Assembly: GCA_964398505.1 (NCBI GenBank)
Contig: CAYNMZ010000002.1
Location: 1-60,423, forward strand
Source of the DNA: an uncultured Spirochaetia bacterium
GTDB taxonomy: Bacteria; Oederibacteriota; PGYV01; CAYNMZ01
Reading direction: 5' to 3'
DNA: 60,423 nt
Positions 37,239-52,208 of the stretch are shown piece by piece. Position numbers and translations under genes: made by a program. The stretch's first letter is position 1; every line of letters begins with the position of its first letter. The notes below the pieces were generated by a model. That model saw only the letters and a program-made list of their open reading frames with translations, was not told the DNA's origin and did not search any database.

Positions 37239-38309
37239 ATGGCTTTTAAAAGGCTAAAGACAAGGCAGGTAAGAATAGGAAGGGCAGTTATAGGCGCGGG
37301 AAACCCGGTCCTTGTGCAGTCAATGACAAACACAAGGACCTCTGACGTCAGGGGAACTGTAAGCCAGATAAAAAGGCTGGCTGACGCGGGCTGTGAGATA
37401 GTGCGCTGCGGCGTGCCTGACATGGAGTCCGCAAAAGCCCTGAAAGCCATAAAAAAGAAGGTTAAAATTCCGCTTGTGGCGGACATTCATTACGATTACA
37501 GGCTCGCTCTTGAGGCTATAAAAAGCGGGGCTGACAAGATAAGGATCAATCCAGGAAACATAGGCTCAGCGGACAAGGTGTCGCAGGTCATACTGGCGGC
37601 AAAGGAACGCGGGGTGGCAATAAGGGTCGGGGTGAACGCGGGAAGCCTGAAGAAAATTGAAAATCTGAAACTTAAGACCGAAAGCGGGAACAGGACAGCG
37701 GACGCCATGGTCGCCTCGCTTCTTGAGTATATTGAGTTCTTTGAGATGCATGATTTCACGGATATTGTAGTTTCTTTGAAAGCATCAGATGTCGTGACCA
37801 CAATAGAAGCATATAAGCTGTTCTCGCAAATGAGGGATTATCCTCTACATATAGGGGTGACTGAAGCCGGTACAGAGCTTGGAGGCACGATAAAGACGGC
37901 CGCAGGACTGGGAATACTCCTGTATGAGGGGCTTGGAGACACTTTGCGAGTTTCGCTCACTGCCGAGCCTGAAAAGGAAGTCTATGTGGCGTACAGGCTG
38001 CTTGACGCTCTCGGCATGAGGAAAAGGGGCGCCGAGATAGTATCATGCCCTACGTGCGCCAGGACCGAGATTGACGTGATAAAGCTGGCGCATGACGTTG
38101 AAAAGGCGGCTATGGGAATAAAAAAACCCGTAAAAATAGCAGTGATGGGTTGTTCTGTGAACGGACCGGGTGAGGCCGCTCACGCCGACATAGGCGTTTC
38201 AGGCGGCAGGGGCGTGGGCCTGATATTTAGGAAGGGAAAGATATTGAAAAAAGTGCCGAAGAAAGACCTGATGAAAGAATTTAATAAAGAGCTTAAAAAA
38301 CTTATATAG
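37239..38309 (+). CDS. ispG: (E)-4-hydroxy-3-methylbut-2-enyl-diphosphate synthase
   Basis: VQSMTNT, ADIHYD, RINPGN, SCPTCAR, MGCSVNGPGEA. Confidence 0.97.
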   Translation: MAFKRLKTRQVRIGRAVIGAGNPVLVQSMTNTRTSDVRGTVSQIKRLADAGCEIVRCGVPDMESAKALKAIKKKVKIPLVADIHYDYRLALEAIKSGADKIRINPGNIGSADKVSQVILAAKERGVAIRVGVNAGSLKKIENLKLKTESGNRTADAMVASLLEYIEFFEMHDFTDIVVSLKASDVVTTIEAYKLFSQMRDYPLHIGVTEAGTELGGTIKTAAGLGILLYEGLGDTLRVSLTAEPEKEVYVAYRLLDALGMRKRGAEIVSCPTCARTEIDVIKLAHDVEKAAMGIKKPVKIAVMGCSVNGPGEAAHADIGVSGGRGVGLIFRKGKILKKVPKKDLMKEFNKELKKLI

Positions 38310-38369
38310 TTTATATTTGATACTTTATGGTTAAGACGCAAAGGTTTTCACCGTCAAATATAAGCTATA
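38305..38369. repeat. 16-bp-stem hairpin homologous to the 3038-3094 hairpin
   Basis: TATAGTTTATATTTGA ... TCAAATATAAGCTATA (15 Watson-Crick pairs plus 1 G.U). Confidence 0.8.
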
Positions 38370-38390
38370 AATTTACAAGGAGTTAACGAA

Positions 38391-40112
38391 ATGAGATGGT
38401 CCAATGCCCTGATAAACACATTGCGAGAGACGCCGAAGGAAGCTGAGGCGGTAAGCCACAAGCTGATGATGAGGGCCGGGCTTATAGCCAAGCTGGGCTC
38501 AGGAATATACGATTTCCTGCCGCTGGGATGGAAAGCCGTAAAAAAGGTAATGAACATAATCAGGGAGGAAATGGACGCCGCGGGCGCGCAGGAAGTCCTG
38601 CTGCCGATTTTATCCCCGGCGGAGCTGTGGAAAGAGACAGGGCGCTGGTCGCTTTACGGAAAGGAAATGATGCGGTTAAAGGACAGGAACGACGCGGAGT
38701 ACGGGCTGGGGCCGACGCACGAGGAAGTCATAACCGACCTTGTAAGGAGGCAGGTGACCTCATACAAGCAGCTGCCCGTCAACCTTTACCAGATACAGAT
38801 AAAGTTCCGTGACGAGATAAGGCCGCGCTTCGGCATAATGCGCGCGAGGGAATTCATGATGAAAGACGCTTACTCCTTTGACAGGAACGAGGAGGAGGCG
38901 CAGAAAAGCTACAGGAAAATGTTTGAGACGTACAATAAAATATGCAGGCGTATCGGCTTTAAGTTCAGGCCAGTAGAGGCGGATTCCGGCGCCATAGGCG
39001 GCTCGTCGTCGGCCGAATTCATGGTGCTGGCCGAGACCGGCGAGGAGACGATAGCTTATTGTGAAAAATGCGATTACGCGGCCAATGTAGAGAAAGCCTC
39101 GGGAAAAATAGCGGCCATAGGCGGGAACGCCGGGGAGAAGCTTGAAAAGATCCACACGCCGGACATAAGGACTGTGGAGGAACTGGCAGCTTTTGTAAAA
39201 ATGAAGCCCGAAGACACGGCAAAGACGATATTTTACATGGCTGACGGCGTGATGACAGCGGCCATGATGAGGGGGGACAGGGAAATAAACGAGATTAAGC
39301 TGAAGAATGTGGCAGGCGCGGCCGACCTGAGGCTCGCGACGCCCGAGGAGATAAAGGCAAAGACAGGCGCGCCCGTGGGTTTTGCCGGGCCGATTAACCT
39401 TAAGGAAAAAGGAATAAAACTTATAATAGACAATACTGTCGCGGCAATGGGATCAATGGTATGCGGCGGGAATGAAAAGGATTACCACTATGTGGGCGTA
39501 AAAAGGGGCAGGGATTTTAACGAGGACATGACGGCTGACATCATAAAACTGAAAAAAGGCGACATTTGCGCGAAATGCGGGGGCGCGATAAACGAGCAAA
39601 AAGGCATAGAAATGGGCCATGTGTTTTATCTCGGCACAAAGTACTCAAAAGCCATGAAAGCAACTTTCCTTGACGAAAACCAGAAGGCCGTGGAATTTGT
39701 AATGGGCTGTTACGGCATAGGCGTGACAAGGATAGTGGCCGCTGCCATAGAACAGGGCAATGACGAGAACGGCATAATCTGGCCCATGGCGATCGCGCCT
39801 TACGAGGTTTACGTGGCGCCGGTGAATAACAAATACAAGGAAGGACTGGATTTCGCGTTTGAGCTGTATGAGAGGCTGAAGGCCGCGGGTATTGATGTTA
39901 TATTTGATGACCGCGACATATCGCCGGGAGTAAAGTTCAAGGACGCGGATTTAATAGGCTTTCCCGTACGGGTAGTGGTTGGAGAGAAGCATTTTAAGGA
40001 CAATAAGGTGGAGTTCAAGCTGAGAAAGGAAAAGAACCTTGAGCTTGTCGGAAGGGATGAGGTTTTTGACAGGGTTGTTGCGGCAGTAAGGGCGGAAAAA
40101 AGCATTTCGTAA
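38391..40112 (+). CDS. proS: Proline-tRNA ligase (bacterial type with insertion editing domain)
   Basis: SHKLMMRAG, GPTHEE, KFRDEIRPRFG.MRAREF.MKDAYSF, MGCYGIGVTR, KFKDADLIGFP. Confidence 0.98.
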   Translation: MRWSNALINTLRETPKEAEAVSHKLMMRAGLIAKLGSGIYDFLPLGWKAVKKVMNIIREEMDAAGAQEVLLPILSPAELWKETGRWSLYGKEMMRLKDRNDAEYGLGPTHEEVITDLVRRQVTSYKQLPVNLYQIQIKFRDEIRPRFGIMRAREFMMKDAYSFDRNEEEAQKSYRKMFETYNKICRRIGFKFRPVEADSGAIGGSSSAEFMVLAETGEETIAYCEKCDYAANVEKASGKIAAIGGNAGEKLEKIHTPDIRTVEELAAFVKMKPEDTAKTIFYMADGVMTAAMMRGDREINEIKLKNVAGAADLRLATPEEIKAKTGAPVGFAGPINLKEKGIKLIIDNTVAAMGSMVCGGNEKDYHYVGVKRGRDFNEDMTADIIKLKKGDICAKCGGAINEQKGIEMGHVFYLGTKYSKAMKATFLDENQKAVEFVMGCYGIGVTRIVAAAIEQGNDENGIIWPMAIAPYEVYVAPVNNKYKEGLDFAFELYERLKAAGIDVIFDDRDISPGVKFKDADLIGFPVRVVVGEKHFKDNKVEFKLRKEKNLELVGRDEVFDRVVAAVRAEKSIS

Positions 40113-40167
40113 TCCGCGGAAAAGGCCTTTAAAATAAGGTGTTTATATGAAAAACCCTAAAAACACC

Positions 40168-40195
40168 TTGACACAGCCGGAAAAACTGGTATAAT
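40168..40195 (+). promoter_or_regulatory. Cold-shock gene promoter
   Basis: TTGACA, 16 bp, TG-n-TATAAT. Confidence 0.82.
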
Positions 40196-40274
40196 CATTA
40201 GCGTTCCCAAAAATAGGGGGCATTTGTAGATTTAAGGTCTACAAGTAACAAAATTTTCAGGAGGCAACAGAAAC

Positions 40275-40478
40275 ATGGCAACAGGAAAAGTGAAGTGGTT
40301 CAATGAAAAGAAAGGCTACGGATTCATTGAACAGGAAGGCGGCAAGGACGTGTTCGTGCATTATGAAGCGATTCAGATGGACGGGTTCAAGACCTTAAAA
40401 GAGGGCGAGACCGTGACCTTTGACATCGTTGAAGGCGCGAAAGGCCCCCAGGCAGCCAACGTAAAAAGCGCCGGCTAA
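40275..40478 (+). CDS. Cold-shock protein (CspA family)
   Basis: [15 protein letters not shown] (RNP1), DVFVHY (RNP2), KGPQAANV. Confidence 0.96.
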
Positions 40479-40501
40479 TCACAGCGGACGCTTTACGATA
40501 G

Positions 40502-40534
40502 AAGCCCGGCAGGATTTCCTGCCGGGCTTTTTTT
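40502..40534 (+). terminator. Rho-independent terminator after csp
   Basis: AAGCCCGGCAGG-ATTT-CCTGCCGGGCTT followed by a T-run. Confidence 0.92.
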
Positions 40535-40644
40535 ATTTAGATGCACTTATGCCCGGGATAAAAATAGCTGCTACGTGTTTCTTGCCTGAAAAACGAGTTT
40601 TTATATTAAAGATTTAACCCGCTGTCCTAAAATTCCCTAAAAAA

Positions 40645-40673
40645 TTGACAAAACAGCCTTATAATGATAAAAT
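40645..40673 (+). promoter_or_regulatory. Promoter at the head of the chemosensory locus
   Basis: TTGACA, 17 bp, TG-n-TAAAAT. Confidence 0.78.
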
Positions 40674-40709
40674 AAATTATATTATTTTAATGCTCATGAG
40701 GAGACAAAA

Positions 40710-41111
40710 ATGGGGATAAAGCAGTTGATTATTATTTTTTTGGTTATTGTTTTCGGTGCTTCATATCTTATCGGCGGGTCTGAGTCAATCAGCGAAAAAA
40801 TAGAAAAATATTTGGACTCTAATTTTAAGTATGACCCTGAAAACTACGAAAAGTACTCTTATTTAAACATTGTTTATATGAACCTTACCGCAAAATATGA
40901 CAGAGCCCTGCAGCTTATTGAAAAGTACGAGGCGCGGTTTGAAAAGGACGAGCAGAAGGCAAAGGCCCAGTTTCAGAGGGCGAGCGCCTATGACCGCAAG
41001 CTGGATGGTAAGAGGGCGAGGGCTGAGTACCAGAAATATGTTGACCTTTACCCTGAAGGACCCAATGCAAAAAAGGCACGGGAAAGAATAAACTTCCTAA
41101 AATTTTATTGA
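40710..41111 (+). CDS. Small membrane-anchored TPR-like protein (BamD/CpoB-like end)
   Basis: N-terminal hydrophobic anchor; AQFQRASAY...ARAEYQKYVDLYPEG..AKKA. Confidence 0.65.
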   Translation: MGIKQLIIIFLVIVFGASYLIGGSESISEKIEKYLDSNFKYDPENYEKYSYLNIVYMNLTAKYDRALQLIEKYEARFEKDEQKAKAQFQRASAYDRKLDGKRARAEYQKYVDLYPEGPNAKKARERINFLKFY

Positions 41112-41121
41112 AAATGGTGAA

Positions 41122-42162
41122 TTGATGGACAAAATAATTCTTGCGCTTATGACCGCCGTTTTATTTTTATCCTCATGCGTGTCAACGGGCGGTGAAGCCG
41201 GCAATTACGCTCAAAAGACTCAACAGGAAGAAGCGGACGATGATTTTGTAAAACAGGCGCCTATAGACGAAAATTACGTTGACACTGACGGCATAATAAT
41301 ACTTTCCCCGGGAGAATCAGAGGCGTCCGAGCTTGAGAAGTATATACTTGGCAGGAGAAAACAGGTGACAGAAGCCGGGGATGAAACAGAGAAAGGCACG
41401 GGCGAGGAGATAACCTTTGAATATGAGCCCGATTCCTCGGGAGTTTTGCTTGTAGAGTCCGAGTCAAATGCCACGGTTGACAGGGCGGGATTTGTCCTTG
41501 TGGAAAAAGCCGGGTTTATCAGCCAGAATTTCACTGAGGACGGTTTCGTTTATTCGCTTGACGAGCACAAGGAGCTTATTGCCGCGGGCGACATGGTTTA
41601 CATAAAGCTTACTGTAGGCAAGGGCGCGCCCAAAGGCAGGCAGTTTTCCATATATGAGGATTCCGAGGAAGTGGTGAACAAGCTTACGGGAGAGCCTATG
41701 GGAAAGCTGATAAAGTTCGTCGGCGTGCTGAAAATCATAGGCAATGTGGAGGACAATATTTACAGGGCCAAGATAACAAAGAGTTATGAGCCGATAAGGA
41801 ACAACTACAAGATAAAAACAAGGCAGGACATGCAGAAATACCACAAGGAAATATCCATGAAGGTGAAAAAAAAGAACCTTGCGGTCCGGGCAAACATAGT
41901 TAAGGTAAAGGACGACACAAAGAGCCTGAAAAGCACTGACCTGATATACCTGGACGCGGGTATTTCCTCCGGCCTGCTGCCCGGGGAAAAACTGGGTATA
42001 TACAGGCCGCGGCAGATAAAGGAAACAGGCAAGGAAGAGGAATATAACAGGATAGGCACCTGCCTCATAATGAACTCCATGCAAAATTCCGCGGTAGCAC
42101 TTATAGTCAAGCAGGACGATATAATAAGGGCCGGCGATATTGTAAAAACGCCTTTAAAGTAG
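41122..42162 (+). CDS. Lipoprotein with two FlgT-C/TsaP-like beta domains
   Basis: Lipobox LFLSSC; GDMVYI..G....FSIY....V....TGEPMG and DLIYLDAG.SSGL.PGEKLGIY repeats. Confidence 0.6.
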   Translation: MMDKIILALMTAVLFLSSCVSTGGEAGNYAQKTQQEEADDDFVKQAPIDENYVDTDGIIILSPGESEASELEKYILGRRKQVTEAGDETEKGTGEEITFEYEPDSSGVLLVESESNATVDRAGFVLVEKAGFISQNFTEDGFVYSLDEHKELIAAGDMVYIKLTVGKGAPKGRQFSIYEDSEEVVNKLTGEPMGKLIKFVGVLKIIGNVEDNIYRAKITKSYEPIRNNYKIKTRQDMQKYHKEISMKVKKKNLAVRANIVKVKDDTKSLKSTDLIYLDAGISSGLLPGEKLGIYRPRQIKETGKEEEYNRIGTCLIMNSMQNSAVALIVKQDDIIRAGDIVKTPLK

Positions 42163-42214
42163 GAAAAGATGCAAAAGCATTACCGGGCTTCTTACGGCTT
42201 GAGCGGCATCGCCA

Positions 42215-43027
42215 ATGATTGAAAAAGAAGGGTTTGAAAAGCTTAAAAATTTGGTATTTGCCGTCCGCGGCCTTGATGTGGGCCAGTACAAGGAAAATTA
42301 CCTAAAGAGAAGGTTTGCTGTCAGGATGAGGGCGCTTCAAATAAGTGATTACGGGGCTTACGCTTCTTTCCTTGAAAAAAATCCTCAGGAATTTGACATA
42401 TTGATGGATAAACTCACCATAAACGTCACGCAGTTTTTCAGGGATACCGAGGTTTTCAGCGAATTTGAGAATACCGTGCTTTTGGAACTTTTTGAAAACA
42501 AAAAAAACAGGCTGTGTATATGGAGTGCCGGATGTTCCTCTGGCGAGGAGCCGTATTCAATAGCGATTTCCGTGATGGAAACTGCTGAAAAATCGGGCAT
42601 AGGCAGCCTTGACCTTGAAATACAAGCTACAGATATTGACAATGCCGTGCTTTTCAAGGCGGTTTCCGGCAAGTACGAGGGACGAACGCTGGACAATGTG
42701 CCTGAAACCAGGAAAAAAAAGTATTTCAACTTTGACGGCAAAAATTATATAATAAATGAAGAAGTAAGGCAAAAAGTAAAGTTTATCAGGGCCAACCTGA
42801 TGGAACCCTATAAAACGGCATATTTTGACGTGGTTTTCTGCAGGAATGTGATTATTTATTTTTCCAGGGAGCTGCAGAAAAAGGTCATAGGTTTTTTTTA
42901 TGACGCTTTAAAGGAAGGCGGATATTTTTTCATGGGTAAGACAGAGACAATGCTTATGGAAATGCGCGAAAAGTTTGAATGCGTGAATATAAAGGAGAGA
43001 ATTTTCAGGAAGACCTCGCGGAAATGA
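42215..43027 (+). CDS. cheR: Chemotaxis protein-glutamate methyltransferase
   Basis: TINVTQFFRD, IWSAGCSSGEEPYS, ATDID, DVVFCRNVIIYF, MGKTE. Confidence 0.95.
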   Translation: MIEKEGFEKLKNLVFAVRGLDVGQYKENYLKRRFAVRMRALQISDYGAYASFLEKNPQEFDILMDKLTINVTQFFRDTEVFSEFENTVLLELFENKKNRLCIWSAGCSSGEEPYSIAISVMETAEKSGIGSLDLEIQATDIDNAVLFKAVSGKYEGRTLDNVPETRKKKYFNFDGKNYIINEEVRQKVKFIRANLMEPYKTAYFDVVFCRNVIIYFSRELQKKVIGFFYDALKEGGYFFMGKTETMLMEMREKFECVNIKERIFRKTSRK

Positions 43028-43078
43028 CATATTAATTTAAATCAGGCAGTATAAAAGAAGTGCAAAAGGCGGAACAAA

Positions 43079-44257
43079 ATGGAAACAGTACAGGATCATA
43101 TAAATCTCGGAATGGCGTTCACTGTAAGCAAGAATTACGCCATGGCCATAAAAGAGTTTGAGAAGGCGCTGTCCATAAACCCCGAGGACGCCGAGGTCCA
43201 TGCCCACCTTGCCAACGCCTACATATACAAGGGCGATTACGAGAAAGCTGTTGCAAGTTATGAGAAATCCCTAAAAATAAACCCGATGAATGTTTCTGTG
43301 ATAACAAAGCTTGGCAGGCTGTACGCTAACATGGGCAAGGCTGATAAGGCGCTTGAGGAATATAAGAAAGCCATAGAGATAAACCCTAATGACATCGCTG
43401 TCAGGCACTCGCTTGCGGACGTTTACGTGAAGCTTGAAAAATATGATGACGCGAGCAGGGAATACGGGTTGATACTAAAAAAGGAGCCTGAAAATACCGA
43501 GATTAGGTTCAAAATGGGTTATATTTTTGAGGCGCAGAAAAAATTTGTCGAGGCGGCCGCGGAATACGAGCAGGTTTTAAAGTCAAACCCTAAAAGCCCC
43601 GGAATAAACTCAATGTTGGGCAATGTATACAGGCACATGAAGAATTATGACAAGGCAATAGAGGCATATACAAGGGCGATAAAAGTCAACCCGAATGAAG
43701 CGGGAGTGGCTTTCAACTTGGGTGTGCTTTATTACGAGCGCGGCGAGCTGGAAAAGGCGCTTGAACAGCTGGAAAAAGCAAAGCAGAACAAGTTTAAAAA
43801 TCCTGAAGTTTATACGCTTACGGCTGAAATATACAATAAGCTCGGCAAAAAGACCGAAGCCATGCAAGAATACAAGAAAATAGCGGGTTCGGGTACCGCG
43901 GATCCCGAGACTCACAAGGCCATGGGTTTTGTTTTCAGCGAGGAAGGACAGCTGGACGATGCTATCAGGGAATATAATGCCGCGTTAAAGCAGAAAAAGG
44001 ACGATCCTGCCGTGTACGAGGCGCTGGGCCATTTATATTACAAGAAGCTAATGTACGGCGAGGCCAAGGAAAATTTCCTTAAAAGCGCGGAACTGGGAAG
44101 GGAAAGCGCCGATATGTATTACAAACTTGGTAACATTTCAATGAAGGAAAATGACCCTGCAAAGGCGGCCGATTACTGGAAAAAATCCCTGCGAATTAAT
44201 CCGTCAAATGAGATAATAAAAAAGAACCTCAAATTGCTTACCGGCGAAAGCCTGTAG
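43079..44257 (+). CDS. Cytoplasmic TPR-repeat protein (~10 TPRs)
   Basis: Repeated LG..Y...G.Y.KA...Y.KA..INP; no signal peptide. Confidence 0.88.
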   Translation: METVQDHINLGMAFTVSKNYAMAIKEFEKALSINPEDAEVHAHLANAYIYKGDYEKAVASYEKSLKINPMNVSVITKLGRLYANMGKADKALEEYKKAIEINPNDIAVRHSLADVYVKLEKYDDASREYGLILKKEPENTEIRFKMGYIFEAQKKFVEAAAEYEQVLKSNPKSPGINSMLGNVYRHMKNYDKAIEAYTRAIKVNPNEAGVAFNLGVLYYERGELEKALEQLEKAKQNKFKNPEVYTLTAEIYNKLGKKTEAMQEYKKIAGSGTADPETHKAMGFVFSEEGQLDDAIREYNAALKQKKDDPAVYEALGHLYYKKLMYGEAKENFLKSAELGRESADMYYKLGNISMKENDPAKAADYWKKSLRINPSNEIIKKNLKLLTGESL

Positions 44258-44265
44258 GGCCGTCT

Positions 44266-44868
44266 ATGGATGTCATAAAAAAACAGCAGAAAAGCCTCGG
44301 CGAGATACTTGTTCATTCCGGGCTGATAACGAGGGAACAGCTTGATGAGGCCTTGGCGGATCAGAAGCAAAGCTCGGAGCCGCTCGGCAAGGTGCTGGTC
44401 AGGAAGGGTTATGTAAGCGAGCATGACATAATGGACGCCTTAAAGGGCATGCTTGTCGTAGTAGTCCGGGCGGGCGGCGAGGATTTTGGCGTTGAGATAA
44501 TATTTGCTCGCGAGATACTCAATTACAGGAAAATAACGCCCCTGCCTGAAATGCCGCCTTATATACTGGGAATGATAAGCCTAAGGGATGAGATAATCCC
44601 TGTGATTTCTCTGGCAGGTATGGTTTTTGGCGGGCCCTGTGCGGCCGGTGAAGACTCAAAGATTATCGTTATTGAGCGAAAAAATGAATGCGTCGGCCTG
44701 CTTGTGGACTCGGTGATAGCCGTCAGGAACTTCTCAAAGGAAAATTTTGAGGACATGAAGAGAAGCATAATATCAAGGGAAAAGAAATACATTGAGGGCA
44801 TTATAAAGAACAAGGGAGAAATAATAACACTACTTAAGCCGGAATACTTCTTTTCCCGGAGGGATTAA
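44266..44868 (+). CDS. MshEN-like domain fused to CheW
   Basis: SLGEILVHSGLITREQLDEALADQ-5aa-PLGKVLVRKGYV, followed by CheW motifs (TPLPEMPPYILGMISLR, VGLLVDSV). Confidence 0.85.
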   Translation: MDVIKKQQKSLGEILVHSGLITREQLDEALADQKQSSEPLGKVLVRKGYVSEHDIMDALKGMLVVVVRAGGEDFGVEIIFAREILNYRKITPLPEMPPYILGMISLRDEIIPVISLAGMVFGGPCAAGEDSKIIVIERKNECVGLLVDSVIAVRNFSKENFEDMKRSIISREKKYIEGIIKNKGEIITLLKPEYFFSRRD

Positions 44869-47051
44869 TGGAAAATCAGCGGGAAAATCCGGGCATCGGC
44901 GAAAATGACGCCATTGGCCACAACAATGTCGGGGTATATTATTACTCAAAGGGCATGTTCCAGCAGGCAATAGAGGAATTCAAAAAATCCCTGTCAATAA
45001 ATCCGGGCTATATACAGGCTCAGCAGAATTTAAAGGCAGTCAATAAGCAGACCGGGATATACGACCGCGCCATACAGGCATATAAGAAGGTCCTGCAGCT
45101 GCGCGCGGATGACCCTGAAGCATATTACAATCTGGGCAAGGCTTTAAGCTATACCGGTGAATATGCAGCGGCCGCTTCCCATCTTGAGACGGCGCTGAAG
45201 ATAAACCCGGAGCATTTACCTGCCGTCAATTTGCTCGGATTGATATACATTAATAACGGCGAATATGACAAAGCTGTGGGAATACTTGGGCCCGCGACGC
45301 AAAAATACCCGAATTACGCGGAATTAAGAAATACGCTCGGCGAGACTTTCTATAAGATGGGACATTATGCCGAGGCTGAAGAACAGTTAAAGCTCGCGAT
45401 AAAGGCTGACCCTGAGAATTCAACCGCTTATTACACATTAAGCTTTGTATATGGCGAGATGAACAGGGAAGATGACGCCTCAGCGGCTTACGCTAAGGCG
45501 GTAGAGATAAATCCTTCATTTGTGCAGTATAACAAGAGTCTTTTAATAGATGTCTCGGATACCTGCGCGCCAAAAAGGGAGAATGAGGCTGAGAAAGCGC
45601 CTGAGGAAAGGAAAGAGGAAGCTTTTTTCAATCTCGCGAAGGTTTACAGGCTGAAGGGTTATATTGATGATGCCATAACGCAGATAAAAAGGACAATCAC
45701 CTATAACATAAAAAAACCCGACTATTACAATTTTTTCGGCGAACTGCTGATTAAAAAAGGGCTTGTTAAGGACGCGATAGAAATTTTCAGACAGACGCTT
45801 AAAATTGACCCTGATTTTGTTGAGGCTAAGGTCAATATTGGCCGAGCTTACAGGGAAATGAAGGAATTTGACAAAGCCAGGGGCGTTATGGACGCCATAG
45901 AGGAGGAAAACCCGGGGTATTCAAACATCAACCTGGAGAGGGGCATAATATCCTACAAGGAAGAGAAGTTGGATGAGGCAATGGTGTTTTTCAAAAAACA
46001 GATTGAGGTCGAGCCTTACAATGACGACGCTCACTACTATCTTGGTGTGTCCTATTACAGGAAAAAGGAATATGACGCCGCGATTACAGAGCTTCGCCGC
46101 GCGCTGGAACTGGTGCCTGATTACATAAAAAAGCCGGATGTAAACCTTTACCTGGGTCTTGTCCTGACGGACAAAGGCAGGAACGAGGAAGCCATAATAG
46201 AGTACCAAAAGGCGCTGTCGGTACAGCCCGACAACGCTGTGGCGCACAATTCAATGGGAGTCGCTTTCAAAAACCTCGGCAATATAGAAAAGGCAATAGA
46301 GGAATACAAGCGGGCTGTAGCTATAGATAAAAATTATTACAAGGCTTACAATAATCTGGGAGTAGCTTATTACAAGAAGAACTTTTTCAGTGAAGCTGAA
46401 AAATATTTCCAAAAGGCGCTTGAGATTGAGCCTAATTACGAGGTGGCTAAAAAGAACCTGGAAGCCGCCAGGAAAAAGGACTCTGTTTTCAGGGAAACAG
46501 CCGAAAAGATAAAGGAAAAACTGAAAACAGCCCCATCTGACGCGGCCCTAAGGTACGAGCTGGCCAATACGTCCAGAAATACTGGACAATTGAAGGACGC
46601 TATTGTAGAATATAAGAAGGCCATAGAAATTAAGCCTGATTTTATTGATGCGGCAATAAACCTGGGCGCCGCTTACCTTGAGTCAGGGGAATACGATGCG
46701 GCTATAAAGGCCTTTATTTCCGTTATTTCCAGGCAGCCGCTTAATGAAAAAGCTCATTTTATGCTCGCTGAAGCGTACCTGAAAAAGGACTGGTACGACG
46801 AGGCTGACATTGAGTTCCATAAGTCGCTTGAATTAAACCCTGAAAACGACGAGGTTTTTTTCAAGCTGGGCGAAGTTTACAGGAAAAAGGCCTGGTGGGA
46901 CGAGGCGACGGCCATGTGGAAAAAATACATTGACAGCAACCCGGAATCAGAGACCGCAAGACAGGCCCAGGAAAATATCAGGATGGTGGAGCTTTGGAAA
47001 AAGGAGCTTGTGATTTCGCCCTCCGCCGGGAAGAAGAAGATTATAAAATGA
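44868..47051 (+). CDS. Large cytoplasmic TPR-repeat protein (727 aa)
   Basis: Well over a dozen TPRs throughout; no signal peptide; TAATG overlap with the upstream gene. Confidence 0.88.
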   Translation: MENQRENPGIGENDAIGHNNVGVYYYSKGMFQQAIEEFKKSLSINPGYIQAQQNLKAVNKQTGIYDRAIQAYKKVLQLRADDPEAYYNLGKALSYTGEYAAAASHLETALKINPEHLPAVNLLGLIYINNGEYDKAVGILGPATQKYPNYAELRNTLGETFYKMGHYAEAEEQLKLAIKADPENSTAYYTLSFVYGEMNREDDASAAYAKAVEINPSFVQYNKSLLIDVSDTCAPKRENEAEKAPEERKEEAFFNLAKVYRLKGYIDDAITQIKRTITYNIKKPDYYNFFGELLIKKGLVKDAIEIFRQTLKIDPDFVEAKVNIGRAYREMKEFDKARGVMDAIEEENPGYSNINLERGIISYKEEKLDEAMVFFKKQIEVEPYNDDAHYYLGVSYYRKKEYDAAITELRRALELVPDYIKKPDVNLYLGLVLTDKGRNEEAIIEYQKALSVQPDNAVAHNSMGVAFKNLGNIEKAIEEYKRAVAIDKNYYKAYNNLGVAYYKKNFFSEAEKYFQKALEIEPNYEVAKKNLEAARKKDSVFRETAEKIKEKLKTAPSDAALRYELANTSRNTGQLKDAIVEYKKAIEIKPDFIDAAINLGAAYLESGEYDAAIKAFISVISRQPLNEKAHFMLAEAYLKKDWYDEADIEFHKSLELNPENDEVFFKLGEVYRKKAWWDEATAMWKKYIDSNPESETARQAQENIRMVELWKKELVISPSAGKKKIIK

Positions 47052-47386
47052 AAAATATCACGATAATAATTCCGCCGGCAAGGTTTGATAACGTGAAAAA
47101 AAGGCTCGTGGAAATCGGAGTTTGCGGCATGACCGTATCTGATGTCAGGGGCTTTGGATACGAGAAAAAACGCATGAAACTCCACGATGACAGGGAAATG
47201 ACAGTTGAGCTCTCGGAAAAGGTAAGGATTGACATAGCGCTTAAGGAAGAAGACGTGGAACAGGTTATTTCTGCCGTGACAGAGGAGGCCAGGACAGGCA
47301 GGCTCGGTGACGGAAAAATATTCATAAGCGAATTGACAGACGCGGTGAGGGTAAGGACGGGCGAGCGCGGGGAACACGCTTTGTAA
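47048..47386 (+). CDS. P-II family signal transduction protein, divergent T-loop
   Basis: 112 aa; GMTVSDVRGFG, K58, TGRLGDGKIF, RVRTGERG. ATGA overlap with the TPR stop. Confidence 0.93.
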   Translation: MKNITIIIPPARFDNVKKRLVEIGVCGMTVSDVRGFGYEKKRMKLHDDREMTVELSEKVRIDIALKEEDVEQVISAVTEEARTGRLGDGKIFISELTDAVRVRTGERGEHAL

Positions 47387-47387
47387 A

Positions 47388-47515
47388 GTCCGGAATCCGG
47401 AATCAAGGATAAAAGATAATTTTTATAATAAGGTTTTTGATACAAGAAGTAAAAAAACTCGCAATTGTTTTTTAAATGATTATGACTCCGGACTCCGGAC
47501 CACGGATTTCGGATT
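47388..47515. repeat. Heptamer-built inverted pair flanking an AT-rich spacer
   Basis: GTCCGGAATCCGGAATCA (47388-47405) versus TGACTCCGGACTCCGGAC (47483-47500): 16/18 complementary. Confidence 0.8.
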
Positions 47516-47535
47516 ATAAAAACGCGGAGGACAAT

Positions 47536-47901
47536 ATGGCAAAACGTGTGCTTATAGCGGATGACGCTTCTTTTATGAGGCTTATGCTTAAGAACATACT
47601 TGAAGGCGCGGGTTATGAAGTTGTGGGAGAGGCCGGAAACGGTAAGGAAGCCATACAAAAATACAGGGAATTAAAGCCTGATATGTTGATTTCCGACATG
47701 GTAATGCCGGAAATGGGCGGTATTGACGTCTTAAAGGAAGTGTTGGCGGAGTTCCCGGACGCGAATGTGCTTATATGCAGCGCGATTGGGCAGCAGGCGC
47801 TTGTTATAGAGGCCATACAGGCGGGCGCGAAGGACTATATTGTAAAGCCTTTTGAACAGTCAAATGTTCTTGAGACTGTGGCAAAAATAATAGGTAAATG
47901 A
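47536..47901 (+). CDS. cheY: Single-domain response regulator CheY (copy 1)
   Basis: VLIADDASFMR, SDMVMPEM, SAIGQQ, YIVKPF. ATG 47536 after GGAGG. Confidence 0.9.
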   Translation: MAKRVLIADDASFMRLMLKNILEGAGYEVVGEAGNGKEAIQKYRELKPDMLISDMVMPEMGGIDVLKEVLAEFPDANVLICSAIGQQALVIEAIQAGAKDYIVKPFEQSNVLETVAKIIGK

Positions 47902-47902
47902 C

Positions 47903-48526
47903 ATGACACAGGAAAAGCTAACAGATTTCCAGAGAGACGCGCTTAAAGAACTCGGCAATATTGGCGCCGGCAGCGCCGCCACGGCGCTTTCCCAGCTGAT
48001 AGGAAGGGATGTCGGCCTTGACGTGCCGCGTGTGGCCATAATACCCGTTGAAAAAATCGCGGAAAAGCTGGGTGCGCAGAAAAAAATAGTCGCGGCAGTA
48101 TATCTGCGCGTGTTCGGGGAGATAAAGGCAAGGACACTGCTCATATTCCCGCAGGAAAAGGTAATGCTGCTTCTTGACCTCCTGATGAAAAGGGAACTCG
48201 GCCAGACCAGGGAGTTCGGCGAGACAGAGCAGTCGGCGTTAAAGGAAGTGGGGAACATAATAATATCCTCATATCTTAACGCGATTGCCAAATTCATAGG
48301 GTTGAATTCAGTGCCTTCGGTGCCTGCTTTGGCAGTTGACATGCTTGATGCTATATTTGAGACAGTATCAACAGAAATGGCGGAAATGGGGCCTGAAGCC
48401 ATGCTAATAGAAAATGAAATGACAGAGGAAGTAACAAAGGTTACCAGCACATTACTTATAATACCTGATAAGGATGCCATGGGCCGCATACTTAAGGCCT
48501 TGAACGACACGATGAAAGGCGCGTAA
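47903..48526 (+). CDS. cheC: CheC phosphatase (copy 1)
   Basis: Two S/DxxxExxN motifs: DALKELGNIG and SALKEVGNII. Confidence 0.92.
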   Translation: MTQEKLTDFQRDALKELGNIGAGSAATALSQLIGRDVGLDVPRVAIIPVEKIAEKLGAQKKIVAAVYLRVFGEIKARTLLIFPQEKVMLLLDLLMKRELGQTREFGETEQSALKEVGNIIISSYLNAIAKFIGLNSVPSVPALAVDMLDAIFETVSTEMAEMGPEAMLIENEMTEEVTKVTSTLLIIPDKDAMGRILKALNDTMKGA

Positions 48527-48535
48527 GAGTAAAAA

Positions 48536-49009
48536 GTGGGCGCGATAAAGACCGCGGGCATGGGCGAGCTTAAAATCGGAGGCAACGGGGATACGTTGGC
48601 TGCCTACGGTATAGGTTCCTGCCTTGTGGTGATTTGCAGGGACAAATCAAGGCCGGTTGCCGGCATACTTCACGCCATGTTGCCGGAAAAGCCCGCGAAA
48701 AAAGCCGAAGCTGCGAAATACGTGGATTCAGGCATTGACGCTCTTGTAAAGGAAATGATAGGGCTGGGAACAGGCATTGGCGCGCTTGAGGCCAAAATAT
48801 TCGGCGGAGCCAGGATGTTTGACACAAAGCAGGAAGGCGAGACAATAGGCGAACGCAATATCAGAAAAGCCAGGGAAGTTCTTCAAAAAATGGGCATAAG
48901 AATTACCGGAGATGACACGGGAAGCACATACGGCAGAAATATTGAATATTCTGTCGATGAGAACAGGGCAGTGGTCCGCAGTTTTATGAGCGGCACAAAA
49001 ATAATATGA
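48536..49009 (+). CDS. cheD: Chemoreceptor glutamine deamidase CheD
   Basis: [41 protein letters not shown] start. Confidence 0.92.
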
Positions 49010-50301
49010 ACGGAGGAAAGATGCCGTCCAAAAAAGGCGGGTTCGGGATTGCCGGCAGGCTGGTATTGGCCAATATCTTGATAGGTTTTACTGTAGCCGC
49101 TGTTATGACCATATACATCTGGCTTGAGTCCGTAAGGATACCAAGCCCGGAGTTTTTTATATCAGCCTTGGCTGCCGTGCTTGTGATGGTGGCGGTGAAT
49201 ACAATTATAAGCGTTTTAATGATAACCGGGAAAACCCGTGAGATATCGGAAAAATGTGACAGAATATCATCCGGCGACCTTACTGTTGAGTTTAATTCGG
49301 ATGACAAATCCTTCGGCGCCATATCCTCGGCGCTTTCCAAGACCGTCGTGGGATTAAGGGAAATAGTTGGAAAAGTCAATGAGTCTACCGAAAGCATAAT
49401 GAATCTGGCGGAGAACCTCTCCGCCTCAACCCAGGAAATAAATGCCTCATCTGAGGAAATCTCATCCACTGTCCAGCAGATAGCGCGGGGCGTTGAACAG
49501 CAGGCTGAGCGTACTGTGGATACCTCACGTATAATGGAAAAGATGTCAACCTCAATTCAGGAAGTAGCCCAGAAATCAGAGGAAGTTCTCGCGGCTGCAA
49601 CATCGGCCAGGGACGCGACCGAAAAGGGCATTGGCACGGTCGGCGAAACCATGAAAAAAATGGACGACATAGTCGAGGCCACGAATGTGGCGAAAAATTC
49701 CATAATGGACCTTAGGAACTATTCTGAAAAGATAGAGGAAGTAGTAAATTTTATAACTGAAATCGCCGACGAGACCAACCTGCTGGCCCTGAACGCGGCA
49801 ATAGAGGCCGCACGCGCGGGTGAAGCGGGCAGGGGTTTTGCGGTAGTGGCAGACGAGGTGAGAAAACTGGCCGAACAGTCAGCTAACGCGGCCAAGGACA
49901 TAGAGAAGCTGGTTGAGGAAATACATGAGAAGACCGGCGCAGTTGAGAAGGCGGTTTTGACCGGCGTAAGGGAGACAGAGGAGGGTAAGAAAGCCGCGAA
50001 AATGAGCGGCGACTCGCTGAGAGCCATAAGCGAAGTTGTTGAAAAGACCGTCGGGCTTTCAAAAGAGATTTTCGCGCTTACGCGCGCGCAGGCCGAGGAT
50101 ACTGACAGGGTGGTCAAGGCCGTGGAGGAGATAGCGGCTGTGGCAGAGGAAACCGCGGCAGGCACTGAGCAGGCTTCTGCGTCCACGCAGGAACAGACAG
50201 CCTCAATGCAGGAAATAGCCGCCCAGGCGCAGGAACTGGCCCATACAGCAGAGGCGTTGAGGGCCGGTATTGGAAGGTTCAAACTGAAGGGGGGGCAATA
50301 G
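49006..50301 (+). CDS. Methyl-accepting chemotaxis protein lacking an extracytoplasmic sensor domain
   Basis: TM1, ~9-aa loop, TM2, HAMP, then a signalling domain with [34 protein letters not shown]. Confidence 0.95.
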
Positions 50302-50303
50302 CC

Positions 50304-50795
50304 GTGGAGAGGAAGGTTGTCGGATTTAAACTCGGCGGTGAAGAGTTCGCCTTTGACATAATGAGAGTTGTTGAAATAATAAAGATCAAGGAAATAACCG
50401 AGGTTCCCACAGCCCCTTCTTTTATAGAAGGAGTGATAAATTTAAGGGGTAAAATAATCCCTATAATAGACCTGCGTAGGCGTTTTAAGATGGAAGGCCG
50501 GGAAAGAGACAAGAAGTTCCGGATAATAATAGTGGAGCTCAGGAAAAGCCAGCTTGTGGGTGTAATAGTTGACGAGGTGGAAAAAGTAATGGTTGTGCAG
50601 GATGGGCAGATGATGTCGCCGCCTGCAACAGTCACAGAGGCCGGAGCGAGGTACATTGAGGCTGTGGCGAAAATTGAGGACAGGATAGTTGTAATTCTGG
50701 AAATAGAGAAGATATTTTCCGAAGAGGAACAGGAAGGCCTAAAGGACATAAATGAAATGGACGGAGGTAAAATTGAAGAAAGTACTGATAGTTGA
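50304..50795 (+). CDS. cheW: CheW coupling protein
   Basis: VVGFKLGGEEFAF, ITEVPTAPSFIEGVINLRGKIIPIIDLR. Confidence 0.95.
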   Translation: MERKVVGFKLGGEEFAFDIMRVVEIIKIKEITEVPTAPSFIEGVINLRGKIIPIIDLRRRFKMEGRERDKKFRIIIVELRKSQLVGVIVDEVEKVMVVQDGQMMSPPATVTEAGARYIEAVAKIEDRIVVILEIEKIFSEEEQEGLKDINEMDGGKIEESTDS

Positions 50796-51138
50796 CGACA
50801 CAAAGTTCATGAGGGACATATTGAGGGGCATACTCAAAAAAAAAGATATTGAGGTCGCGGCTGAGGCGGGAAACGGCCGCGAGGCAGTGGAAAAATACAA
50901 GGAAATAAAGCCCGACCTTGTTACCATGGACATAATAATGCCGGAAATGGACGGAATAGAGGCTGTAAGGAATATAATTGCCTTTGACCCGTCCGCGAGG
51001 ATACTTATGTGCAGCGCTATGGGCCAGCAGGCGCTTGTGATAGAGGCAATACAGGCCGGTGCGCGTGATTTTGTTATAAAACCATTCCAGCCTACAAGGG
51101 TTCTGGAAGCGGTGGACCGTGCCCTGCAGGAGGGCTGA
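50773..51138 (+). CDS. cheY: Single-domain response regulator CheY (copy 2)
   Basis: VLIVDDTKFMR, TMDIIMPEMDG, SAMGQQ, FVIKPF. TTG 50773 after GGAGG. Confidence 0.9.
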   Translation: MKKVLIVDDTKFMRDILRGILKKKDIEVAAEAGNGREAVEKYKEIKPDLVTMDIIMPEMDGIEAVRNIIAFDPSARILMCSAMGQQALVIEAIQAGARDFVIKPFQPTRVLEAVDRALQEG

Positions 51139-51140
51139 TT

Positions 51141-52208
51141 TTGTCTGAAAAAATCCGCGTGTTGGTTGTGGACGACTCGGCATTCATGAGGAAAGTAATA
51201 CCCCAGATAATACAGGAAGACACGTCCATGGAAGTTGTGGGAACTGCAAGGGACGGCAAAGATGCGTTCAAAAAGGCGGCGGAACTTTCACCCGACGTAA
51301 TAACAATGGATGTGGAAATGCCCGGCATGGACGGGCTCAGCACCATAGGCCTCATTATGAAGGAAAAACCCACGCCGGTAATAATGCTTTCAGCCTACAC
51401 GCCAAGGGGTGCGGAAATAACGCTGCGGGCGCTTGAACAGGGAGCCGTTGATTTTGTATGCAAGCCTTCAGGCGCTATATCCCTTGACATAAAAAAAGTG
51501 CAAAAAGAGCTGCATGAAAAGATACGGGCGGCCGCGAACATAGACATGTCAAAAATTACTCCTGTAGAAGAGGGCGGCGCGGAGGTCAGCAAGGAAAAAT
51601 TTCAGGATAAGACGCCGACCGTTATGGTCTGTATAGCATCATCCACCGGCGGTCCCAGGGCGCTGACTTCTGTTGTGCCAAAAATCACGAAAATGAGCCT
51701 GCCTGCCGCATATCTTGTTGTACAGCACATGTCAGAGGGTTTTACGGCAACGCTCGCGTCAAGGCTGAACTCGCAGTCTGTAATAAAGGTAAGGGAGGCA
51801 AAGGACGGCGAGGAAATACTGGCAGGCACAGCCTATCTCGCGCCCGGAAATTTTCATATGGAAATATTAAGGGACAATGGCAGGTATTTTATCACGCTCA
51901 ACCAAAAACCGCAAAAGAACGGTGTCAGGCCTTCGGCTGATTATACAATGGCTTCGGTAGCCGAGAGGTTTGAGGGTAAAAAGATAGGCGTTATACTCAC
52001 GGGCATGGGTAAGGACGGCGCCGAAGGCGCTGAAAAGATGAAAAAAGCCGGGGCTGTCGTGATGGCTCAGGACAGGGAAACAAGCGTGATTTACGGCATG
52101 CCGCGGGTTGTGACAGAGCGCGGTTTAGCTGACAGGGTTCTGCCGCTTGAAAGCGTGGCAGACAATATAATGGACGAAATTGAAAAGGCTATGGTGCCTG
52201 AAAAATGA
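51141..52208 (+). CDS. cheB: Chemotaxis response-regulated methylesterase CheB
   Basis: REC domain plus ASSTGGP, VQHM and LTGMGKDGA catalytic motifs. Confidence 0.96.
   Translation: MSEKIRVLVVDDSAFMRKVIPQIIQEDTSMEVVGTARDGKDAFKKAAELSPDVITMDVEMPGMDGLSTIGLIMKEKPTPVIMLSAYTPRGAEITLRALEQGAVDFVCKPSGAISLDIKKVQKELHEKIRAAANIDMSKITPVEEGGAEVSKEKFQDKTPTVMVCIASSTGGPRALTSVVPKITKMSLPAAYLVVQHMSEGFTATLASRLNSQSVIKVREAKDGEEILAGTAYLAPGNFHMEILRDNGRYFITLNQKPQKNGVRPSADYTMASVAERFEGKKIGVILTGMGKDGAEGAEKMKKAGAVVMAQDRETSVIYGMPRVVTERGLADRVLPLESVADNIMDEIEKAMVPEK

Follow-up and report, generated by a model that had tools for sequence, protein, structure and literature searches.

An MshEN_N-CheW fusion protein encoded in a chemosensory operon, a candidate c-di-GMP-responsive coupling protein

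CheW is the physical coupler of chemoreceptors and kinase, and no second-messenger input to it has been documented. The known routes of c-di-GMP into chemotaxis are PilZ proteins, whose targets are receptors, CheR, CheX or the motor, and a further route, through a CheA that bears an MshEN_N module, is suggested by binding data only. A gene at positions 44266..44868 (forward strand) of the window analyzed here, a stretch of 60,423 nucleotides from an uncultured Spirochaetia bacterium, raises the question of whether such an input could be built into CheW itself. The open reading frame has exactly the limits first given for it, with an ATG start and the stop codon included, and encodes 200 residues.

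Residues 10-62 of the protein are an MshEN_N module, the 53-residue four-helix unit with which ATPases of the MshE/PilF type bind c-di-GMP, and it is followed directly by a complete CheW domain (residues 64-197, 44455..44856, forward strand). In the secondary structure of an AlphaFold2 model a single residue, Gly61 (44446..44448, forward strand), links the fourth helix of the module (residues 52-60) to the first strand of CheW (residues 62-69). This glycine is without variation in an alignment of 85 family sequences. In MshE and PilF, their own C-terminal subdomain starts at the same point. The fusion, as proposed in the initial annotation, is borne out by matches of residues 11-60 to the NCBIfam model NF053729 and of residues 64-197 to Pfam PF01584. 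A Response_reg domain was not found in the protein with Pfam.

The module has the two 24-residue motifs and the five-residue spacer first noted for it, in the register of MshE. Motif I (residues 10-33, SLGEILVHSGLITREQLDEALADQ, 44293..44364, forward strand) aligns without gaps to Arg9-Gln32 of MshE, and Lys9 lies just before it, as had been pointed out. The spacer (residues 34-38, KQSSE, 44365..44379, forward strand) ends in Glu38, which is nearly invariant in the family, and motif II (residues 39-62, PLGKVLVRKGYVSEHDIMDALKGM, 44380..44451, forward strand) has Met62 at the place of Gln61 in MshE. The ungapped phmmer alignment equates residues 4-63 of the fusion with residues 3-62 of Vibrio cholerae MshE (5htl_A), at an offset of -1, and there are no gaps relative to the liganded structures 5htl and 8pdk. 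The equivalent pairs (fusion=MshE) are S10=R9, L11=L10, G12=G11, G19=G18, L26=L25, L30=L29 and Q33=Q32 in motif I, and P39=R38, L40=L39, G41=G40, G48=G47, I55=L54, L59=L58 and M62=Q61 in motif II.

The match to NF053729 ('c-di-GMP_motif, MshE-related', 53 positions) has a score of 72.5 bits, with a cutoff of 38 and an E value of 1.8e-20. With phmmer, the c-di-GMP-binding domain of Thermus PilF was matched at E 8.6e-8 and MshE at E 3.6e-7. All 85 of 85 full-length relatives match NF053729 at E ≤ 0.001. Of the two domains, CheW is recognized by Pfam, whereas MshEN is recognized by NCBIfam and not by Pfam, as PF05157 (MshEN/T2SSE_N) gave no match to the fusion protein at E ≤ 1. This silence is expected, because the Pfam model begins only within motif II (alignment in the supplement of Wang et al. 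2016) and continues into the C-terminal subdomain, which is absent from the fusion protein. The protein has the 'MshEN_N only' architecture of Wang's Supplementary Table 4, with CheW at the place of MshEN_C. Fusions of this type are missed by architecture surveys based on Pfam.

The AlphaFold2 model (pLDDT 84.5) consists of four helices and then the CheW barrel. The helices of the module (residues 11-17, 23-35, 40-46 and 52-60) are predicted with pLDDT of about 80-94, and the pTM of 0.69 makes the mutual orientation of the two domains moderately confident only. A Foldseek search with the model recovered c-di-GMP-bound PilF and MshE, after CheW structures, with probability 1.0 and E 3e-3; as the second domains differ, the whole-model alignments to MshE and PilF have rmsd of about 12 Å, and only the match itself is informative. 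An MshEN profile match and a predicted helical bundle, on which the initial annotation had let the fusion stand or fall, are thus both found. An ordinary CheW whose N-terminal extension is unstructured or whose start was mis-called could likewise leave PF05157 silent, and would agree with the public annotation of all 92 full-length relatives as plain CheW and nothing more. We regard such an artefact as extremely improbable, given the E value to a dedicated model, the confident prediction of four helices and an N-terminus, M-[ED]-x-x-K-x-Q-x-K-S-L-G, that is kept in 92 fusion proteins. Chance resemblance and annotation error are ruled out by the profile match, the alignment to MshE and PilF, the conservation across the family and the NF053729 matches of its members.

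The CheW half is equally clear. The match to PF01584 has an E value of 3.5e-31 and a score of 108.1 bits, versus a gathering score of 23.5, and the model is matched by Foldseek to the solved CheW structures 2qdl, 6s1k and 2ch4 (2qdl_B, E 7.5e-13, TM score 0.82, target-normalized). In the ungapped alignment to E. coli CheW (2ho9), Arg107 is equivalent to Arg62 and Glu83 to Glu38; this Arg/Glu pair is kept in 92/92 and 91/92 of the relatives, respectively. The NLRG motif reads SLRD, as the initial annotation had it, with Asp108 at the place of Gly63 of E. coli CheW. Position 108 varies in the family (31 Gly, 20 Asp, 14 Glu, 14 Ser and 10 Asn), and the loss of the glycine is, judged from these sequences, a variation of the subclade and not a trait of the family.

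All 92 relatives come from Goldiibacteriota/FCPU426-like uncultured bacteria. The MshEN_N module is better conserved than the CheW domain, with a mean pairwise identity of 63% versus 49%. A profile search of 1.84 billion representatives returned, among its best 150 matches, mostly proteins with 3-5 CheW repeats and four single-stretch, full-length MshEN_N-CheW fusions. A word-indexed search with divergent family members as queries was more useful than this exhaustive profile search.

Whether the module may bind c-di-GMP cannot be read from the profile score. The module alone (residues 1-67) scores 75.9 bits against NF053729, inside the range of 53.9-85.2 bits of proven binders scanned likewise. 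However, PilF GSPII-A, a non-binder, also passes the cutoff at 54.8 bits, which makes the score unfit as a proxy for binding, and residue-level arguments were used instead. In MshE, the G11L variant does not bind c-di-GMP and G40I binds 72-fold more weakly, and both remain folded. The L10A, L29A and L39A variants bind 28-38-fold more weakly. The non-binders XpsE, PilB of P. aeruginosa and V. cholerae, Dgeo PilB_3 (RLE) and PilF GSPII-A (SLA) have lost motif Gly or Leu-cluster residues. The decisive residues for binding are the two glycines and the Leu clusters, and all are retained in the fusion. Across the family, Gly12 is kept in 86/86 and Gly41 in 91/91 sequences, and the Leu-cluster positions (L11/I55/L59 and L40/L26/L30) are all Leu, Ile, Val or Met (Leu26 in 90/91, Leu30 in 91/91 and Leu40 in 90/91; Leu in 78 and Met in 14 at position 59). 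Gln33, equivalent to Gln32 of MshE, is kept in 89/91. The positions where mutation abolishes or strongly weakens binding by MshE are thus retained in essentially all 92 relatives. The turn glycine Gly48, which is purely structural, varies (24/40 in the subclade of the fusion protein). That the motif glycines are invariant while Gly48 drifts, and that the MshE glycine variants stay folded, points to ligand contact over the fold alone as what is maintained.

There are differences, however, at three peripheral contacts. The published residue sets for the stacking positions are Arg, then Arg/Lys/Leu in the extended consensus and [RKPN] in the relaxed pattern. Position 10, the stacking position of motif I, is Ser, Thr, Gly, Ala or Asn, never Arg, Lys or Leu in 92 sequences, and Ser10 is outside every published set. 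Position 39 of motif II is Pro in 48, Lys in 37, Leu in three, Ala in two and Arg in one, and the stricter published sets exclude Pro39, which agrees with the relaxed pattern and has precedents in NfrB and PilF GSPII-C. Each of these five residues is found at a first motif position of a proven binder (NfrB, PilF GSPII-B or Dgeo PilB_2). Position 62 is Leu, Met, Ile or Thr, never Gln. A counterpart of the Asp contact from the C-terminal subdomain of MshE and PilF is also absent from the fusion. The site pattern of the variant is [KR]-S-L-G ... E-P/K-L-G ... L-x-G-[ML]. None of the tested binders begins motif I with Ser or Thr, an observation that counts against binding, and one face of a guanine may be left uncovered unless Lys or Arg at position 9 substitutes.

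The initial annotation took the Arg of the RLG motif as a key contact. This is not supported by the published work, in which the Arg contributes no more than 5-fold (Wang et al. 2016, PMC5013675). Moreover, Thermus PilF GSPII-B, which has Lys and Leu at the Arg positions, binds at 6 nM, and restoring Arg weakens its binding; NfrB (P489-L490-G491) binds c-di-GMP at 1 µM, and the MshEN_N module of Aeromonas CheA (MLG) at 2.6 µM (Wang et al. 2016, PMC5013675). As the Arg is dispensable, its loss in the fusion is of less concern than was stated. Met62 in place of the second Gln, which was not flagged earlier, is a change with a measured cost (11.8-fold for Q61A of MshE; 77-fold for Q218E of PilF). 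Neither motif of the fusion satisfies in full the relaxed regular expression of Wang et al. The expression is not a necessary condition for binding, since PilF GSPII-B, which binds at 6 nM, likewise fails it in motif II.

These replacements, which extend through the family (Ser/Thr-type, mostly Pro/Lys, and Met/Leu), could also mean that the retained MshEN_N fold now serves for docking or positioning, as a small helical domain that has lost nucleotide binding. Like the unsatisfied relaxed motif, the existence of MshEN-type domains that do not bind and can still pass the profile, such as PilF GSPII-A, is in keeping with this possibility. The position of the gene is as well, between those of two TPR proteins: a 392-residue one directly upstream (43079..44257) and a 727-residue one downstream (44868..47051), both identified by Pfam TPR and on the forward strand, the former syntenic in all loci and the latter in all but one (L019). 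The fusion gene is translationally coupled to the downstream gene, the ATG of which shares one base with its TAA (TAATG). The flanking TPR proteins, a PII-like protein or an HD-GYP enzyme could be the docking partners. On the other hand, known non-binders characteristically lose the motif Gly or Leu-cluster residues that the fusion family keeps, the structural Gly48 drifts while Gly12 and Gly41 are fixed, and the replaced positions are those shown to be tolerant in published binders. A ligand-blind module is therefore a serious alternative that we nevertheless hold to be rather unlikely. Of the two readings offered initially, c-di-GMP gating and docking, both still lead, and the fusion itself stands.

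The surrounding genes form a chemosensory cluster in the order CheR, TPR, fusion, TPR, PII, CheY, CheC, CheD, MCP, CheW, CheY, CheB, CheA, CheC and PilM-like, and this operon is present in every related locus of sufficient length. All of the following genes are on the forward strand. The first recognizable che gene, cheR (42215..43027; Pfam CheR and CheR_N), is syntenic in all loci that extend far enough upstream. The PII-like protein (47048..47386; Pfam P-II, E 4.7e-26) has 112 residues from the ATG at 47048; the listed start of its reading frame is a TTG at 46994, and the proteins of relatives have 112 residues. It is followed by a CheY-like receiver (47476..47901; Pfam Response_reg, synteny), the start of which is likely later than listed because the relatives have 121 residues, and by cheC (47903..48526) and cheD (48536..49009), each recognized by the Pfam model of that name. 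The 431-residue MCP (49006..50301; Pfam MCPsignal, E 2.8e-46) has a transmembrane hairpin at residues 12-77 and lacks a periplasmic domain in a hydropathy scan. The fusion was described initially as a second CheW, and the cluster does encode a canonical single-domain one (50304..50795; Pfam CheW, E 4.3e-39), which has 163 residues, an intact NLRG motif and 32% identity (BLASTP) to the CheW half of the fusion. A second CheY (50752..51138), cheB (51141..52208), cheA (52205..54208) and a second cheC (54225..54848) were assigned by Pfam and synteny. The conserved cluster ends with a 702-residue PilM/FtsA-like protein (54916..57024; Pfam FtsA and PilM_2), also downstream in relatives. In locus L017 the MCP and CheA are outside the cluster.

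In nine relatives, a membrane HD-GYP phosphodiesterase is encoded directly upstream of cheR, and a REC-GAF-HD-GYP gene adjoins the cluster in L017. The HD-GYP gene beside cheR is absent from this window, where no c-di-GMP gene was found in or beside the che cluster, and no Rfam match of any kind, hence no c-di-GMP riboswitch, was found in the window. A membrane GGDEF protein had been suggested as the source of the ligand. The gene exists (21721..23082; PF00990, E 8e-42, signature GGEEI, multiple transmembrane segments), whereas a specific link to the cluster does not follow: it is 21 kb from the fusion gene, housekeeping genes lie between it and the cluster, and no counterpart was found at that position in relatives. 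As a partner of the fusion it is without synteny support.

The site might instead be adapted to another cyclic dinucleotide or nucleotide, such as 3'3'-cGAMP, with Ser10, Pro39 and Met62 as marks of altered specificity. These three substitutions are fixed family-wide and not random, and MshEN of V. cholerae accepts cGAMP as a weaker ligand. In MshEN, however, guanine is selected by backbone amides at the Gly positions together with the Leu clusters, and both features are unaltered here; moreover, the recurring neighbors are c-di-GMP enzymes (HD-GYP, GGDEF), and a cGAMP synthase was seen in none of the loci. A different ligand thus appears quite improbable.

From its sequence, the fusion is, on balance, probably a c-di-GMP-responsive coupling protein. 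Its CheW domain would take CheW positions in the receptor/CheA baseplate, and the module would bind a single c-di-GMP by way of main-chain amides at Gly12/Glu13 and Gly41/Lys42, with further contacts from the Leu triads (Leu11, Ile55, Leu59 and Leu40, Leu26, Leu30) and Gln33. The affinity is expected to be micromolar rather than nanomolar, because Ser10, Pro39 and Met62 replace three peripheral contacts. The ligand state would shift how the module is oriented on the CheW barrel, and this reorientation would alter how, or whether, the fusion CheW couples receptors to CheA. More tentatively, the protein could be the first second-messenger receptor built into CheW, an arginine-free, single-Gln MshEN_N variant that binds c-di-GMP and, via a one-glycine hinge, directly gates receptor-kinase coupling; together with the membrane HD-GYP phosphodiesterase of the operon, it would complete a local loop in most members of the lineage. 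Should binding be kept, the family, with Ser at position 1 and the second Gln lost, would be a natural test of how much drift an MshEN_N module tolerates.

The 24-5-24 register is shared with V. cholerae MshE (PDB 5HTL) and Thermus thermophilus PilF GSPII-B (PDB 8PDK), as are the Gly, Leu-cluster and first-Gln residues and, by prediction, the four-helix bundle. The resemblance to PilF GSPII-B is closest in motif II (EPLGKVLVRKG in the fusion, DLLGRILVRKG in PilF), and both proteins have Arg at neither first motif position. In comparison, the fusion differs from the two in the Ser at the start of motif I, the Met for the second Gln and the missing Asp contact. In MshE and PilF the module precedes MshEN_C and a secretion ATPase, in the fusion a CheW domain.

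A regulatory input domain on CheW is found in CheV (CheW-REC), which occurs alongside plain CheW. The regulatory domain of CheV is C-terminal and controlled by phosphorylation, whereas that of the fusion is N-terminal, of a nucleotide-binding type and not a REC domain.

MshEN_N has been found fused to CheA and to CheX before, and CheW is a further partner. The CheA of Aeromonas veronii (EKB11881, PMC5013675) is similar in having an Arg-less motif I (MLG) and an MshEN_N module in a baseplate protein with a CheW-like domain. Its module lies between P2 and the dimerization domain, however, far from the CheW-like P5, while that of the fusion runs straight into strand 1 of a free-standing CheW. In Geobacter lovleyi Glov_2742, (MshEN_N)2-CheX (Wang et al. 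2016, Supplementary Table 4), MshEN_N is likewise found without its C-terminal subdomain on a small chemotaxis protein. The partner there is a CheY-P phosphatase and not the coupling protein, and the module is present twice.

A search of open-access papers and bioRxiv found nothing relevant on MshEN or c-di-GMP acting through CheW. PilZ-based c-di-GMP inputs to chemotaxis are described for chemoreceptors (Cbp1, PMC6454048), for MapZ-CheR1 (PMC6370697) and for PlzC-CheX (PMC12799141). In these systems c-di-GMP acts on a component of the chemosensory pathway and not on the motor, as proposed for the fusion, but through PilZ domains on a receptor, methyltransferase or phosphatase, and none acts via CheW. 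In comparison, the fusion, a soluble protein of 200 residues, would offer a compact, expressible system for asking whether a small molecule can tune the coupling strength of an array.

The MshEN_N-CheW fusion protein is encoded at 44266..44868 on the + strand of the window (ATG start, 200 aa). Its CheW domain covers residues 64-197 (Pfam, E 3.5e-31). The MshEN model PF05157 has no match in the fusion in the Pfam scan. The NCBIfam model NF053729 ('c-di-GMP_motif, MshE-related', 53 positions) matches residues 11-60 with 72.5 bits (E 1.8e-20), against a cutoff of 38 bits. Residues 4-63 are aligned without gaps to residues 3-62 of V. cholerae MshE (5htl), and the N-terminus also has a gapless alignment (E 8.6e-8) with GSPII-B (8pdk), a c-di-GMP-binding domain of Thermus PilF. 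In the MshE register, Ser10, Leu11, Gly12, Gly19, Leu26, Leu30 and Gln33 of motif I are equivalent to Arg9, Leu10, Gly11, Gly18, Leu25, Leu29 and Gln32, while Pro39, Leu40, Gly41, Gly48, Ile55, Leu59 and Met62 of motif II are equivalent to Arg38, Leu39, Gly40, Gly47, Leu54, Leu58 and Gln61. The 24-5-24 spacing and the Lys9 residue adjacent to Ser10, both described in the initial annotation, are correct.

The AlphaFold2 model of the fusion (pLDDT 84.5, pTM 0.69, 85-sequence alignment; a 24-sequence run gave a similar result) has predicted helices at residues 11-17, 23-35, 40-46 and 52-60, followed directly by a strand of the CheW barrel (residues 62-69). Only the invariant Gly61 is located between helix 4 and strand 1. 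A Foldseek search with this model finds CheW structures at the top (2qdl, E 7.5e-13), and then c-di-GMP-bound GSPII-B and MshE (E about 3e-3, probability 1.0). Based on the modeled junction and these matches, the CheW domain is predicted to start exactly where MshE and PilF run on into their C-terminal subdomain.

Two protein searches, both seeded on the fusion family (independent MshEN_N-CheW fusions may exist elsewhere), find 92 proteins of about 200-225 aa that share this architecture. Their precomputed annotation is PF01584 only, and those with names are all called 'CheW'. The named host genomes are Candidatus Goldiibacteriota, candidate division FCPU426 and a few MAGs labelled Spirochaetia. 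All of the full-length relatives (85/85) match NF053729. A chance resemblance or artefact as the origin of the module, which has a negligible probability, is refuted.

Gly12 (86/86), Gly41 (91/91) and Leu30 (91/91) are invariant in the family, and Leu26 (90/91), Leu40 (90/91) and Gln33 (89/91) are nearly so. Position 55 is Ile in 72, Val in 19 and Leu in 1, and position 59 is Leu in 78 and Met in 14. Lys9 (Lys8 in MshE) is Lys in 46 and Arg in 39. Ser10 is mostly Ser (77), with Thr (5), Gly, Ala and Asn (1 each), Pro39 is Pro (48), Lys (37), Leu (3), Ala (2) or Arg (1), and Met62 is Leu (47), Met (42), Ile (2) or Thr (1). The turn glycine Gly48 is Gly in only 24/40 members of the window's subclade. 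The mean pairwise identity is 63% for the MshEN_N module compared to 49% for the CheW domain. The motif is a stable, derived variant rather than a decaying remnant.

The binding of c-di-GMP by MshE rests on the backbone amides of the motif glycines, two leucine triads and two glutamines (Wang et al. 2016, PMC5013675). By ITC, binding is undetectable for G11L, 72-fold weaker for G40I, 28-38-fold weaker for L10A, L29A and L39A, 9-fold weaker for Q32A and 11.8-fold weaker for Q61A, and the Gly variants stay folded (PMC5013675). The effects of Arg9, Asp12 and Gln32 in an earlier study, as cited in the same paper, are apparently at most fivefold. GSPII-B has an affinity of 6 nM with Lys and Leu replacing both arginines (25-fold weaker for K167R, 4-fold for L196R), and GSPII-C, in which one first position is Pro, about 460 nM (Neissner et al. 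2024, PMC11731258). NfrB (P489-L490-G491 in motif I) binds c-di-GMP at 1 µM. The affinity is 2.6 µM for the MshEN_N module of Aeromonas CheA (MLG) and 13.5 nM for Dgeo PilB_2, whose motif II begins with Ala in the supplement alignment as printed, while Dgeo PilB_3, with RLE in motif II at the site of the motif Gly, shows no binding (PMC5013675; some comparison sequences are from machine-read supplement text). With these Pro, Lys and Leu binders, the worry of the initial annotation over the lost arginines is largely removed for Pro39; it stays for Ser10, because Ser or Thr is found there in no tested binder. The quantifiable cost is the absence of the second Gln (Met62 at the Gln61 position).

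On balance, a c-di-GMP-responsive CheW is the slightly favored reading. The Ser/Thr, Pro and Met/Leu substitutions are fixed across the family and the fusion gene has TPR neighbors, as might be expected of a ligand-blind docking module, a less probable reading given the invariant ligand-contact glycines. An altered nucleotide specificity of the module is improbable.

As a calibration, characterised domains were scanned against NF053729. The binders MshE (85.2 bits), GSPII-C (84.0), GSPII-B (63.4) and NfrB (53.9) are all matched, and the window module (residues 1-67) falls within their range (75.9 bits). TM0837, for which no binding value was found, has 78.8 bits. The non-binders PilB of P. aeruginosa and PilB of V. 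cholerae have no match, but the non-binder GSPII-A (54.8 bits) passes the cutoff, and therefore the score alone is insufficient to establish binding. The weight rests on the residues: the non-binders lose the motif Gly or cluster residues, and the fusion family never does so. Labels of 'c-di-GMP-binding' from NF053729 alone can over-call.

The CheW domain is aligned without gaps to E. coli CheW, with Arg107 and Glu83 (92/92 and 91/92 in the family) equivalent to Arg62 and Glu38. This alignment also bears out the earlier reading of 'SLRD' in place of 'NLRG'. The residue after the Arg is Asp in the fusion and Gly in 31/92 relatives, and 'SLRD' is therefore a subclade feature, not a hallmark of the family. 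There is no sign of a broken CheW.

In a c-di-GMP-responsive CheW, the barrel would occupy CheW positions of the baseplate. The P4 domain of CheA enters P5 at an N-terminus equivalent to that of CheW in established array structures, and by this homology the module is expected at the cytoplasmic side of the baseplate. The module would bind one c-di-GMP, probably with micromolar affinity, and the ligand state would shift its orientation on the barrel, changing coupling or occupancy. The domain that comes after the module in PilF changes its orientation upon ligand binding (Neissner et al. 2024, PMC11731258).

The operon (+ strand) consists of cheR (starting at 42215), a TPR protein (392 aa, 43079..44257), the fusion, a second TPR protein (727 aa, 44868..47051, with a TAATG overlap with the fusion stop), a PII-like protein (112 aa, 47048..47386), CheY, CheC, CheD, an MCP (49006..50301), a canonical CheW (starting at 50304, 32% identical to the CheW domain of the fusion), CheY, CheB, CheA, CheC and a PilM/FtsA-like protein (about 700 aa, 54916..57024), the last gene of the cluster here and in most relatives. 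This order recurs in 20/20 related loci, the most divergent member among them, with exceptions in L017, L019 and L020. Two TPR genes flank the fusion in nearly all loci, L019 having none downstream, and L017 and L020 have no MCP between cheD and cheW. In the MCP, two neighboring TM segments (residues 12-77) form a hairpin with essentially no periplasmic loop, and the protein therefore probably senses membrane or cytoplasmic signals. The PII-like protein, unusual within a chemotaxis operon, is fixed in the window and every related locus extending far enough. Its T-loop is divergent, but GlnB-like sequence is retained in the C-terminal part (TGRLGDGKIF...RVRTGE).

Two + strand genes without a Pfam family open the neighborhood in almost all loci, at 40710..41111 (133 aa) and 41122..42162 (346 aa; its lipoprotein-like signal ends in LSSC). 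In a second subgroup, a T2SSE-family ATPase of about 766 aa with TPR-type matches is located three genes upstream of cheR (L018, 3876-6176; L019, 3859-6159; L020, 4235-6538). No flagellar genes are found in the 60-kb window. The pathway may have a pilus-like or secretion-like machine as its output, and one could speculate that the MshEN_N module is derived from such an ATPase. No Rfam family reaches the gathering score across 1..60423 (neither a tRNA nor a riboswitch nor any other known RNA).

A membrane-anchored HD-GYP protein of about 460 aa (PF13487, E about 1e-38 to 1e-40; HD...HHExxDGxGYP intact) is encoded directly upstream of cheR, after the conserved lipoprotein gene, in nine loci (L002, L007-L011, L013, L014 and L016). 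It is absent from the window (42162..42215), L001, L005 and L006 (both Goldiibacteriota) and L015. In L017, a REC-GAF-HD-GYP gene is two genes past cheB, and L017-L019 have a GAF-GGDEF gene 8-10 kb upstream, past housekeeping genes. The initial annotation proposed a membrane GGDEF protein as a possible ligand source. The organism does encode a GGDEF-domain protein (21721..23082, +, about 8 predicted TM segments), with the signature GGEEI instead of GG(D/E)EF and no RxxD I-site found. However, a specific link to the cluster is absent, as the gene is 21 kb from the fusion, separated from it by pyruvate kinase, ribosomal and isoprenoid genes, with no syntenic counterpart in the related loci. A further protein (158 aa, 16451..16927, +), encoded amid housekeeping genes, has a stand-alone cNMP-binding domain.

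In the open-access literature, no paper was found on c-di-GMP acting through CheW. Two MshEN_N-only fusions are known in chemotaxis, (MshEN_N)2-CheX and a module inserted in CheA (PMC5013675), and relative to these the concept of the fusion is incremental. The MshEN_N-CheW architecture is missing from the MshEN_N-only fusion catalogue of Wang et al. 2016 (PMC5013675). With fusions to CheA and CheX known and one to CheW not, MshEN_N-CheW therefore appears to be a new domain combination, with a distinct motif subtype, confined to one candidate-phylum-level lineage.
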